A stretch of 4,664 nucleotides of DNA from a virus (lineage: Duplodnaviria; Heunggongvirae; Uroviricota; Caudoviricetes): the IMG/VR virus record IMGVR_UViG_2537562173_000009; one strand, written 5' to 3'. The notes beneath the pieces are model-generated. The model had not been told where the DNA came from and ran no database searches. It saw nothing but the letters and a program-made list of their open reading frames with translations. The translations under genes were made by a program, and so were the position numbers. Below are positions 2,023-4,664 of the stretch, piece by piece (the stretch's first letter is position 1; each line of letters begins with the position of its first letter).

Positions 2023-4083
2023 ATGGCAGTACAGATTTCAGGCGTGCTGAAAGACGGTGCAGGAAAACCGATACAGAACTGCACCATTCAGCTCAAAGCA
2101 AAACGTAACAGCACCACGGTTGTGGTGAACACGGTGGCCTCAGAAAATCCGGATGAAGCCGGACGTTACAGCATGGATGTCGAGTATGGCCAGTACAGCG
2201 TTATCCTGCTGGTTGAAGGTTTTCCGCCTTCACATGCCGGGGCCATCACCGTGTATGAGGATTCTAAGCCGGGGACATTGAATGATTTTCTGGGCGCTGC
2301 AACAGAAGATGATGTTCGTCCGGAGGCACTGTATCGTTTTGAAAAGATGGTGGAAGAGGTGGCACGCAACGCTGAAGCCGCCTCTCAGAGCGCAGCGGCA
2401 GCAAAGAAATCAGAAACAGCAGCGGCATCGTCCAGGAATGCGGCGAAAACATCAGAGACGAATGCAGGTAACAGCGCGAAAGCGGCAGCTTCTTCAAAAA
2501 CAGCCGCACAAAACGCAGCAACAGCGGCAGAACGTTCAGAGACAAATGCCCGTGCGTCAGAAGAAGCCTCCGCAGACAGTGAAGAGGCTTCCCGCCGTAA
2601 TGCAGAGTCAGCCGCTGAAAATGCCGGAGTCGCCACCACAAAAGCGCGGGAGGCCGCAGCAGACGCAACAAAGGCCGGGCAGAAAAAGGATGAGGCTCTG
2701 TCGGCAGCGACACGGGCTGAAAAGGCGGCAGACCGCGCAGAAGTCGCAGCGGAAGTGACTGCAGAGCCCTATGCGAATATAGTGCCGCCGCTGCCTGATG
2801 TGTGGATACCGTTTAACGATTCACTGGATATGATTGCGGGTTTTTCTCCGGGCTATAAAAAAATAGCTATTGGTGACGATGTGGTTCAGGTCGCCAGTGA
2901 TAAACAGGTTAATTTCAGTCGCGCATCAACGGCAACATATATCAACAAATCTGGCGAACTGAAAACGGCGGAAATTAATGAGCCGCGATTTGAGTGTGAT
3001 GGCCTGCTTATTGAGGGACAAAGAACGAACTACATGCTCAATTCGGAAAGTCCAGCCAGCTGGGGGAAGTCATCAAACATGGATGTGCCCGAAACCGGGA
3101 CAGATAGTTTTGGTTTTACTTATGGAAAGTTTGTCTGCAACGATTCTCTGGTTGGGCAAACTTCGGCTATTAATATGGCATCAATTGCTGCAACAAAGTC
3201 AGTTGATGTCTCAGGCGATAACAAGTACGTGACAACCTCATGCCGTTTTAAAACAGAACGACAGGTAAGGTTACGTATACGGTTTGATAAGTATGATGGT
3301 AGTGCAACAACTTTTCTTGGCGATGCGTACATTGATACGCAAACGCTTGAAATTAATATGACAGGTGGGGCTGCCGGCAGAATTACGGCACGAGTCAGGA
3401 AGGATAAGACCACAGGCTGGATTTTTGCAGAGGCAACGATTCAGGCAATTGATGGTGAGTTAAAAATAGGCTCTCAGATACAGTATTCTCCTGAGCGGGG
3501 TGGGGCAACAGTATCTGGTGACTATATTTATCTTGCCACCCCACAAGTAGAGAATGGGCCGTGTGTATCATCATTTATTATTTCAGGAGGCAGCGCAACG
3601 ACAAGAGCCAGTGATTTGGTTAGTATCCCCACCAGAAATAATCTTTATAAGTTACCATTTACTTTTTTACTTGAGATTCATAAAAACTGGGATATTGCAC
3701 CAAACGCCGCACCCCGCGTGTGGGATATAGCAGCAGCCAATACCGGGCAATCAGCAATTGCAGCAATCAACAGAGGTAGTGGTAAGTTATATATGAGTCT
3801 GTCAAACCCTTCAGGCTTGTATGTTAATAGCGCAGCGACAGATGTATTTGCAGAGAAAACCACATTTGGATGTATTGCAAAAGCTGATGGTCACTTTCAT
3901 GTGGTGACAAATGGTAAAGCGGTTAATGAAGTTTATTGTGAATATAATGGTGTGACCGCTGATAAAAATATCCGATTTGGAGGGCAGACGAATACTGGAG
4001 AACGACATCTGTTTGGCCATATTCGCAATTTCCGCATATGGCATAAAGAATTAAATGACAGGCAATTAAAAGAGGTCGTATGA
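2023..4083 (+). CDS. stf: Side tail fibre protein (lambda Stf family N-terminus, Ala/Ser-rich shaft, divergent C-terminal receptor-binding domain).
   Basis: It is a long ORF, open from GTG at 2017. The ATG at 2023 is the preferred start: it is preceded by GGAG (2014-2017) with a 5-nt spacer and gives 'MAVQISGVLKDGAGKPIQNCTIQLKAKRNSTTVVVNTVASENPDEAGRYSMDVEYGQYSVILLVEGFPPSHAGAITVYEDSKPGTLNDFL', which is near-identical in pattern to the lambda Stf N-terminus as I recall it. The low-complexity Ala/Ser/Thr/Glu shaft is typical of side tail fibres. The stop is TGA at 4081-4083. Confidence 0.9.
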   Translation: MAVQISGVLKDGAGKPIQNCTIQLKAKRNSTTVVVNTVASENPDEAGRYSMDVEYGQYSVILLVEGFPPSHAGAITVYEDSKPGTLNDFLGAATEDDVRPEALYRFEKMVEEVARNAEAASQSAAAAKKSETAAASSRNAAKTSETNAGNSAKAAASSKTAAQNAATAAERSETNARASEEASADSEEASRRNAESAAENAGVATTKAREAAADATKAGQKKDEALSAATRAEKAADRAEVAAEVTAEPYANIVPPLPDVWIPFNDSLDMIAGFSPGYKKIAIGDDVVQVASDKQVNFSRASTATYINKSGELKTAEINEPRFECDGLLIEGQRTNYMLNSESPASWGKSSNMDVPETGTDSFGFTYGKFVCNDSLVGQTSAINMASIAATKSVDVSGDNKYVTTSCRFKTERQVRLRIRFDKYDGSATTFLGDAYIDTQTLEINMTGGAAGRITARVRKDKTTGWIFAEATIQAIDGELKIGSQIQYSPERGGATVSGDYIYLATPQVENGPCVSSFIISGGSATTRASDLVSIPTRNNLYKLPFTFLLEIHKNWDIAPNAAPRVWDIAAANTGQSAIAAINRGSGKLYMSLSNPSGLYVNSAATDVFAEKTTFGCIAKADGHFHVVTNGKAVNEVYCEYNGVTADKNIRFGGQTNTGERHLFGHIRNFRIWHKELNDRQLKEVV
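2365..2760 (+). repeat. Low-complexity Ala/Ser/Glu/Thr-rich repetitive coding segment (fibre shaft) inside stf.
   Basis: The translation is 'RNAEAASQSAAAAKKSETAAASSRNAAKTSETNAGNSAKAAASSKTAAQNAATAAERSETNARASEEASADSEEASRRNAESAAENAGVATTKAREAAADATKAGQKKDEALSAATRAEKAADRAEVAAEV'. Short motifs recur (SETNA twice, AA(K/E)(T/R)SETNA), and the DNA is rich in gcagc/gcggc repeats. This generates spurious ORFs on both strands. Confidence 0.8.
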
Positions 4084-4358
4084 AAGATTTAACTTTGAAG
4101 TTTCATGACAAACTGCAGTTTAAGGCCTTCCTGTCATCTCTTGACTGGGAGGAGGATGAAGACCTCCAGAATAAACTGTTAGTCGATGAAATTGGTTTCA
4201 CCTACACAGAAACAGGGGTAACAGAAGAGGGAGAACCTGTCTGTGTCCGGAATGACGGTTATTTTGTCAACATTCGCATTCTTGATGACTTGTTTGATGT
4301 TTCTGTATTCTCTGATTATGTCGTGGAGCTGGAAACACCGCTTCGGGAATGGAGCTGA
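4080..4358 (+). CDS. Hypothetical small acidic protein (92 aa), translationally coupled to stf. Possibly a fibre-tip accessory or assembly factor; it is not recognisably Tfa.
   Basis: Its ATG (4080-4082) overlaps the stf stop TGA (4081-4083) as ATGA. An SD-like AAAGAGG lies at 4069-4075. The ORF is very Asp/Glu-rich ('DWEEDEDLQNKLLVDEIGFTYTETGVTEEGEPV...') with no hydrophobic segment. It shares the low GC (~35-42% by hand count) of the stf 3' domain. Confidence 0.65.
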   Translation: MKDLTLKFHDKLQFKAFLSSLDWEEDEDLQNKLLVDEIGFTYTETGVTEEGEPVCVRNDGYFVNIRILDDLFDVSVFSDYVVELETPLREWS

Positions 4359-4370
4359 AAGGAGGAAATA

Positions 4371-4664
4371 ATGGATATAAGCCCCTTACTTCATGCGCTT
4401 TGTGCTGTGGCTGCGCAGATACTGGTTGGTCTTTTTACCGGAAACTGGGCTTACGGAGCGATAGCCGGTTGTACGTTCTTCATTGCGCGTGAACATACCC
4501 AGGCAGAATATCGCTGGATTGAAATGTTCGGGCATGGCAAGCGAATGAATATGCCGTGGTGGGGCGGTTTTGATCCGCGAGCTTGGGATGTGGCAAGCCT
4601 GATGGATTTTGCTGTGCCGGTGGTGGCGTGTCTGCTGGTCTGGCTGTTGGTTAATCGTGGGTGA
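4371..4664 (+). CDS. Hypothetical small membrane protein (97 aa, two predicted transmembrane helices). Candidate moron / accessory gene.
   Basis: There is a strong SD, AAAGGAGG (4358-4365), with a 5-nt spacer to the ATG at 4371. The stop is TGA at 4662-4664. Hydrophobic stretches are 'LLHALCAVAAQILVGLFTGNWAYGAIAGCTFFIA' and 'LMDFAVPVVACLLVWLLV', flanking a Trp-rich loop 'EHTQAEYRWIEMFGHGKRMNMPWWGGFDPRAWD'. GC returns to about 53-60%. Confidence 0.7.
   Translation: MDISPLLHALCAVAAQILVGLFTGNWAYGAIAGCTFFIAREHTQAEYRWIEMFGHGKRMNMPWWGGFDPRAWDVASLMDFAVPVVACLLVWLLVNRG

Follow-up and report, generated by a model that had tools for sequence, protein, structure and literature searches.

In lambda, the side tail fibre gene is followed directly by tfa (orf-194), which encodes a trimerisation chaperone. 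The question raised by a 4664-nucleotide (nt) stretch of Caudoviricetes DNA (IMG/VR virus record IMGVR_UViG_2537562173_000009; the whole stretch is called the window below) is how a lambda-type side tail fibre ends when no tfa gene follows it, and whether such a tip folds alone. A preliminary description of the window had proposed that the fibre gene, stf, ends in a lectin-type jelly-roll that folds without the classical chaperone. We found that the tip of stf consists of two domains, not one, and that a small gene, orf92, overlaps its stop codon. Taking the evidence together, we consider it rather probable that stf encodes a mosaic fibre with a lectin-type module that folds per chain, and that orf92 encodes a dedicated accessory protein, co-inherited and co-translated with it. 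The gene and the parts of its distal module are as follows (positions are those of the window).

2023-4083, plus strand: stf, the side tail fibre gene (686 amino acids from the annotated ATG; an alternative start, GTG at 2017, gives 688)
2797-2910, plus strand: conserved neck that opens the distal module (DVWIPFNDSL...), of low entropy in an alignment of 73 sequences
2911-3651, plus strand: middle β-sandwich domain, homologous to the RcGTA head-spike fibre Rcc01080, with a variable body around nt 3037-3516
3652-4080, plus strand: concanavalin A (ConA)-like/laminin-G (LamG)-like jelly-roll domain, with a Pfam match at nt 3700-4065
4009-4080, plus strand: conserved C-terminal strand motif LFGHIRNFRIWHKELNDRQLKEVV, from the translation

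The preliminary description had read a ConA/LamG-type signature in the last residues of stf and had placed the start of the domain at nt 3500. The signature is indeed present: stf ends ...IRFGGQTNTGERHLFGHIRNFRIWHKELNDRQLKEVV as quoted, and every specified position of the motif is occupied as required at nt 4009-4080. The proposed start had to be moved, since position 3500 falls inside the preceding domain and the LamG-like domain spans about nt 3652-4080. The Pfam family named in the description, Laminin_G_3 (PF13385), matched residues 562-683 (688-amino-acid numbering; positions 27-149 of 151 in the hidden Markov model, HMM) at E = 5e-5, and only the score fell short, with 23.9 bits for the whole protein and 25.1 bits for the C-terminal fragment against a gathering score of 27.6. 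Among 73 diverse homologues, 38 matched Laminin_G_3 at E ≤ 1e-3, the best at 1.9e-11. With an entropy of 1.4 bits, compared with about 3 in the domain body, the motif block ranks among the three best-conserved parts of the module, and at its residues H408, R413, W415, L419, and Q423 (model numbering) conservation across the 73 homologues reaches 90% or more. Because the block belongs to a conserved framework while the domain bodies vary, we interpret the motif as a structural strand. An exhaustive search with the last 428 residues of stf yielded 2888 relatives at E ≤ 1e-3, and in all relatives found the module ends 0-6 residues from the C-terminus of the protein.

The sequence profile, the predicted fold, and Foldseek all gave a ConA-like/LamG-type jelly-roll. 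When the 73-sequence profile was compared with the PDB, the C-terminal region of about 150 residues matched an S-layer-associated domain (4qvs, E = 1.6e-7), C-reactive protein (3.7e-4), the binding domain of botulinum toxin D (9e-4), and the CBM40 of NanA (1.2e-3). An AlphaFold2 (AF2) model of residues 261-688, built from the 73-sequence alignment, was nearly all β, with a predicted local distance difference test score (pLDDT) of 93.7 and a predicted template modelling score (pTM) of 0.90; single-sequence AlphaFold of the same residues gave a pLDDT of 34 and was unusable. In the predicted model, the C-terminal domain is a two-sheet jelly-roll β-sandwich that can be superposed on solved ConA-like members. 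Its fold relatives include CBM40, pentraxins, the lectin-like subdomain of botulinum toxin, and arabinanase domain 4, and the identity to members of the ConA-like superfamily (pentraxins, CBM40, the Hc N-terminal subdomain of botulinum and tetanus toxins, and domain 4 of the GH43 enzyme AbnA) is 7-17%. At the level of the predicted structure, the ConA-like lectin-type fold of the stf C-terminus is confirmed.

The complete two-domain module was also found in BFVD, in the tail fibres of the coliphages rolling, EdH4, and NBEco002 (TM-score 0.90-0.93, normalised by the query; 35-50% identity) and in many proteins of uncultured phages labelled 'Concanavalin A-like lectin/glucanases superfamily'. 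The lateral fibre of the T5-like phage fp01 carries the same module (phmmer E = 2e-24) with an orf92 homologue behind it. All four named fibres differ from stf in their N-terminal anchors and virion types, and we found no functional characterisation of them in the literature searched. Lectin folds in phage fibres are already a known kind (PMC11058221), and the tip of stf is a new, uncharacterised instance of this known type of fibre tip.

The domain preceding the jelly-roll spans residues of about 299-545 and was modelled with pLDDT > 90. It matched the NCBIfam model GTA_spike_fiber (NF048003) with 55.3 bits over residues 331-531, passing the cut-off of 36, and PDB entry 6tb9_F3 at E = 1.4e-9, a value that improved to 3e-40 when the profile replaced the single sequence. 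The homology to Rcc01080 stops before the LamG-like domain of stf, and the two proteins differ in their place on the particle: Rcc01080 sits on the capsid, stf on the tail. Each head spike contains one Rcc01080 chain (PMC7296036), and the protein binds capsular polysaccharide; in recombinant form, expressed alone, it bound cells (PMC10218006). By analogy with the fold relatives of the tip and with the capsule-binding RcGTA fibre to which the adjoining domain is homologous, a polysaccharide receptor is plausible. Column entropies across the 73 sequences identified conserved framework blocks at model residues 1-80, 241-280, and 401-428, and the neck residues D1, W3, P5, L10, and G15 (model numbering) are nearly invariant. 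The bodies of both distal domains are variable, so specificity does not necessarily lie in the LamG-like domain alone, and either or both domains may carry it.

Behind stf, the window contains the following features.

4069-4075, plus strand: Shine-Dalgarno sequence AAAGAGG for orf92, inside the end of stf, seven bases upstream of the ATG
4080-4358, plus strand: orf92, a 92-amino-acid acidic protein, candidate fibre accessory or assembly protein; its ATG overlaps the stf stop codon (ATGA, 4080-4083)
4371-4664, plus strand: orf97, a small membrane protein of 97 amino acids (PHROG 1443, unknown function; two transmembrane domains in phage 21)

The preliminary description was correct that no tfa-like open reading frame (ORF) follows stf. 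Neither orf92 nor orf97 matched Caudo_TAP (PF02413), the Tfa family, in Pfam, PHROGs, or NCBIfam, so the gene immediately downstream of stf is not the one found at this place in lambda-type fibres. A tblastn search of the window with lambda Tfa gave nothing significant (best E = 6.8, inside the central tail fibre gene J), blastp of orf92 against lambda Tfa gave no match at E ≤ 100, and the 13-43 kb part of the record of Escherichia phage 21, a close relative, has no annotated fibre assembly gene. The possibility that orf92 or orf97 is a Tfa in disguise was rejected for the lack of Caudo_TAP and of similarity to lambda Tfa. Nor did stf show a Pfam match to Peptidase_S74 (PF13884), the intramolecular chaperone; the protein ends within the LamG-like domain.

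What the preliminary description had overlooked, in proposing that the tip folds without a chaperone, is orf92 at 4080-4358, which is linked to the module, diverges together with it, and in one case is fused to DUF4376. The phage 21 record has a ribosome binding site annotated at the spot equivalent to the Shine-Dalgarno sequence given above. The protein belongs to PHROG 1361, and the family also includes PHROG 18574; both groups are of 'unknown function'. In 80 IMG/VR loci of close relatives, orf92 lies directly after the module wherever downstream sequence exists, the exception being one locus (L034) in which stf is interrupted. In 79 further loci, ranked against a distant member and including about a dozen fibres only about 30% identical to that of phage 21, the start codon of a family member lies within -7 to 0 nt of the fibre stop codon, or at +220 nt in one case. 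When all loci were pooled, an orf92 homologue was found behind 165 of the 166 testable fibre genes, and the single miss (L024) was positive by tblastn; the pooled loci partly overlap in their source contigs and reduce to 95 distinct fibre/orf92 pairs. The contexts comprise lambdoid prophages, a P2-type prophage, the T5-like phage fp01, and the Aeromonas myophage 13AhydR10PP. The spacing is again -7 to 0 nt in a Buttiauxella genome, and in the genomes of Aeromonas and Noviherbaspirillum the family member follows the fibre gene after a gap of 9 to about 200 nt.

The two genes also diverge together. Across four steps of decreasing similarity, the identities of the module and of orf92 were about 100 and 96-100%, 87 and 90%, 73 and 64%, and 71 and 53%, while orf97 stayed at 81-100%. 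The ratio of nonsynonymous to synonymous substitution rates (dN/dS) of orf92 was 0.385 over 317 pairs; orf92 is a fast-evolving gene under purifying selection. In a mirror-tree comparison, all four regions of the module correlated with orf92 identity (0.68-0.84), and no sub-domain stood out. Thus, the traits of an accessory protein, namely being encoded directly after its client fibre, being co-inherited with it, and co-varying with its tip, were all found for orf92. Direct searches for its nature gave little: the orf92 profile had no match in the PDB at E ≤ 10, a Pfam scan of 15 family members gave no credible match, and protein searches with the sequence or the profile returned only E. coli and Shigella 'hypothetical proteins' with no name and no Pfam domain.

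We also considered proteins that carry the middle domain without the LamG-like domain. Among the PB1-like baseplate proteins, for which the solved homologues are 8env_K and 9b45, PB1 gp45 has only the middle domain and is followed by no ORF resembling orf92. In the alphaproteobacterial locus L090, the middle domain occurs without a detectable LamG-like domain and without an orf92 neighbour, and in another alphaproteobacterial locus (L092) a 75-amino-acid ORF has a weak N-terminal resemblance to orf92 (E = 0.0023 over 17 residues). Capsule genes are reported to follow rcc01080 immediately (PMC5026251), and an orf92-like neighbour is accordingly not expected there. Since PB1 gp45, L090, and, according to the published report, rcc01080 lack such a neighbour, the pattern fits a role of orf92 tied to the complete module including the LamG-like domain, within a small negative set. 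As a separate observation, in Aeromonas molluscorum the fibre gene and the orf92 homologue are separated by a 99-amino-acid basic ORF (L089, 4682-4981). We take its CCKQHDNDYG stretch to resemble the active-site motif of secreted phospholipase A2, with no Pfam support at E ≤ 0.05.

A possible link to a known class of fibre chaperones came from the betaproteobacterium Noviherbaspirillum, in which the ORF after the fibre gene encodes 204 amino acids. Its C-terminal half is DUF4376 (Pfam E = 4.9e-24). An orf92-family HMM from which this sequence had been left out scored 28.7 bits on the first 78 residues (E = 6e-10 for a test set of only 10 proteins). Several phage annotations name DUF4376 proteins as tail fibre assembly proteins, and for one member, gp27 of Alteromonas phage V22, experiments have shown that it is required for an active fibre; its N-terminal β-region has been proposed to bind and co-evolve with the lectin-like head, possibly in the role of a 'cap' (PMC7289586, PMC10579305). 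As with the DUF4376 chaperones V22 gp27 and A5 gp9, the gene for orf92 comes straight after that of a fibre with a lectin-like head. Two things set it apart: orf92 and 14 other family members lack the helical domain of DUF4376 (PF14301), and V22 and A5 have client fibres that form intertwined trimers and carry another type of head. The N-termini of the DUF4376 proteins of Acidovorax phage AP1, the myophage ctfzr933 (MW202455), and a Salmonella Infantis prophage are not orf92-like. In the last of these (L177, 2827-3528), the 233-amino-acid protein after a P2-type fibre gene has a lambda-Tfa-like N-terminus, seen by eye only, and a DUF4376-like C-terminal region, seen only as a tblastn match to the Noviherbaspirillum protein (E = 1e-14); neither part was confirmed with Pfam. 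This protein suggests that fibre chaperones may be built from exchangeable modules, and because a Tfa-like N-terminus is fused to DUF4376 there, the orf92-like domain of the Noviherbaspirillum protein would occupy the slot of the Tfa-like N-terminal domain.

On these grounds, we propose that the fibre is a mosaic, in which a distal module of two β-sandwich domains that spreads horizontally is mounted on an N-terminal anchor of lambda type and a stalk rich in Ala. Three chains, anchored and bundled by the N-terminus and stalk, would each end in a compact two-domain lectin-type head, and each head would fold per chain and bind a surface polysaccharide. Collectins, in which heads sit on bundled chains, offer a broad analogy. 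Per-chain folding is suggested by the monomer model, which is compact and of high confidence, and by the RcGTA homologue, which is a single chain, and the loss of tfa would be explained because such heads do not need a Tfa-type trimerisation chaperone; Tfa would no longer be used, its gene having been displaced. The orf92 protein, made in step with the end of stf, would bind the head as a holdase, folding helper, or transient cap. Several points weigh against this proposal. The middle domain, at least, can fold unaided, because the recombinant RcGTA fibre alone bound cells (PMC10218006), and a confident monomer model is no proof that the module is monomeric in the fibre. The Pfam match of stf, below its gathering threshold, is by itself only suggestive of the LamG-type domain. 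Adjacency on the DNA alone gives co-inheritance, and linkage and interaction cannot be told apart by the mirror-tree comparison. Only one DUF4376 fusion was found, at a moderate score; it is guilt by association and a lead rather than proof, and by sequence comparison orf92 itself has neither DUF4376 nor similarity to any known chaperone.

In the opposite explanation, the tip folds alone, without a phage-encoded helper, and orf92 is a mere passenger, unrelated to the fibre but in tight linkage with the end of stf. In its favour, autonomous folding is the rule for ConA-like domains, the AF2 monomer comes out compact and with high confidence, and orf92 resembles no known chaperone; the homologous RcGTA fibre works when it is expressed alone (PMC10218006). 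One would not expect of a passenger, however, that its start codon overlaps the fibre stop in nearly every locus that could be tested, whether in siphoviruses, myoviruses, or lytic T5-like phages. Nor would it be expected to keep pace with the module in its divergence when the next gene, orf97, does not, or to become fused to a fibre-chaperone domain, and we therefore regard this explanation as unlikely. Because a small gene always lies directly behind stf, the conclusion of the preliminary description that the tip needs no chaperone is probably wrong. The description had itself named a Tfa-like chaperone encoded elsewhere and acting on this fibre as evidence that would speak against it, and a non-Tfa protein of inferred function probably acts in this way.

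The main alternative to a chaperone or cap is that orf92 is a structural adaptor kept on the mature tip, for example to dock a second fibre protein in branched fibres. Many E. coli prophages have a second fibre gene, encoding a protein with a C-terminal Peptidase_S74 domain, directly behind orf92 and in front of orf97 (L084, 5096-6136; L086, 5075-5779 and L087, 1873-2577, 234 amino acids each), and fp01 likewise has one directly after orf92 (L173, 4816-6945). Some fibre accessory proteins, among them Mu Tfa and A5 gp9, stay bound after assembly (PMC10579305). Phage 21, the P2-like prophage, and the Buttiauxella and Aeromonas loci have orf92 but no second fibre gene, and no orf92 homologue was found in published virion proteomics or structures; we regard this role as quite doubtful. 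A third explanation places the action of orf92, or of orf97, on the host, as receptor masking or superinfection exclusion that co-evolves with the module in the manner of T5 Llp and pb5. Exclusion genes often adjoin and co-vary with receptor-binding genes (T5 llp, phi80 and N15 cor), and orf97 is a membrane protein. Against this, orf92 is very acidic (isoelectric point 4.1-4.2 in the homologues) with no N-terminal signal-like hydrophobic stretch on sequence inspection, it lies inside the late tail operon with translational coupling, and orf97, the better candidate, does not co-vary with the fibre; a host-directed function thus appears very improbable. The accessory-protein proposal therefore remains the one that we favour for this locus. 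The wider claim, that orf92 founds an unrecognised and widespread family of small acidic partners (chaperone, cap, or adaptor) that are specific to the 'GTA-spike-fibre + LamG' module and move together with it as a cassette between siphoviruses, myoviruses, and T5-like phages, we judge to be evenly balanced.

The origin of the module could be traced from the remaining architecture of stf, for which the following features are relevant.

2023-2415, plus strand: lambda-type N-terminal anchor domain, Prophage tail fibre N-terminal (PF08400), Pfam E = 9.8e-69
2344-2796, plus strand: Ala/Glu/Ser-rich stalk, presumed trimeric coiled coil (limits approximate), 52 Ala and 21 Glu in 160 residues
2782-4653: mobile cassette of the distal stf module, orf92, and most of orf97, 87.8% nt identity with the P2-like prophage L002

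In phage 21, stf is named 'side tail fiber' (CPT_21_22), and it belongs to PHROG 1419, a tail protein group (E = 0). The PF08400 anchor and the place downstream of J, in the gene order J-stf as in phage 21, identify it as a lambda-type Stf, and PDB entry 9e7m ('Tail fiber protein') aligns with residues 3-96 (E = 1.4e-49). Compared with the lambda Stf/Tfa system (Ur-lambda stf/tfa; lambda orf-401, orf-314, and orf-194), it shares the anchor, with 74% identity to orf-401 over residues 1-158, the Ala-rich stalk, and the position after J, whereas the distal part from about residue 254 has been swapped for an unrelated two-domain lectin-type module, and tfa is absent or vestigial with a different small gene following the fibre gene. 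The stalk gave weak matches to the coiled-coil N-termini of depolymerases, and we infer that it is trimeric. By blastn, the stretch shared between the window and L002 is limited to 2782-4653, from the end of the stalk through most of orf97, and in L002 a P2-type fibre N-terminus is joined to the same distal module. The G+C content falls from about 0.58 to 0.40-0.45 at the left boundary of the cassette. Right after orf97, vestiges of tfa were found: a 20-residue 3' vestige in phage 21 (Tfa residues 156-175; L001, 8862-8921, just past the end of the window), 3' vestiges of 36-39 residues in two E. ruysiae prophages (L084, 6492-6599; L085, 5349-5465), and a 74-amino-acid Caudo_TAP remnant in L002 (6612-6836). 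These vestiges mark the right-hand recombination scar of a cassette that replaced a lambda- or P2-type tip and its chaperone. The shared stretch, the drop in G+C content, and the vestiges together indicate that the distal module arrived as a cassette, displacing the original tip and most of tfa.

Lambdoid phages and lambda-based delivery particles owe their host range to their side tail fibres. For retargeting, it is relevant that a common class of E. coli prophage fibre ends in a self-contained lectin-type module that is swapped as a cassette between phage types. If orf92 is a required partner, chimeric fibres built from the module alone may fail, and orf92 would need to be co-transferred whenever the module serves to retarget phages or delivery particles. 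It would then represent a third type of intermolecular fibre helper beside the Tfa/gp38 and DUF4376 types, and the present picture of fibre chaperones (Tfa, gp38/gp57A, intramolecular S74, and DUF4376) would be incomplete. The lectin fold and the homology to the GTA fibre point to a polysaccharide receptor, which can be tested with phage 21, a classical laboratory phage. We regard the obligately linked orf92 family as a more interesting lead than the lectin tip itself.

The window is 99.4% identical to phage 21 (OL657228.1, 17034-21875) and 99.5% identical to phage ev017. The same region of the phage 21 record contains the 3' part of J, stf (686 amino acids), a 92-amino-acid hypothetical protein, and a 97-amino-acid putative membrane protein. 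The literature searched yielded no specific work on phage 21 stf, on Jouyvirus, or on lambdoid side fibres of the lectin type. Upstream of stf, the window contains two further features.

Up to nt 1964: J fragments (central tail fibre), ORFs 43-210, 164-907, and 882-1964
1983-2002: terminator-like hairpin after J

No plus-strand terminators were found in the window between stf, orf92, and orf97. Relative to phage 21, J has a 22-nt insertion at 147-168 (a partial duplication of GGCGGTGAACA...) and a clean 200-bp deletion at junction 880/881, and both changes are missing from every matching related locus (about 50-60). Because both shift the frame, J looks like a pseudogene here, and the source is therefore either a defective prophage or carries a sequence or assembly defect. 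The genes stf, orf92, and orf97 are intact.

The membrane protein gene orf97 behaves differently from orf92. It is 81-100% identical across fibre types, lies 0.7-1.1 kb further off in many loci, and does not co-vary with the fibre, although lambdoid and P2-like prophages exchange it as part of the fibre cassette. It is a candidate for a lysogenic-conversion or exclusion function. The second S74 fibre genes in the E. coli prophages and fp01 suggest two-protein, possibly branched, side fibres in such loci; LtfA/LtfB of DT57C was considered as a model for the fp01-type locus and rejected, since LtfA ends in an S74 intramolecular chaperone and is a different fibre type. Beyond the window, in phage 21, the sitABCD iron/manganese transporter operon is annotated on the opposite strand directly after the fibre cassette (L001, 8934-12383), and because it adjoins the cassette, the fibre-distal end of the late region appears to be a cargo hotspot.

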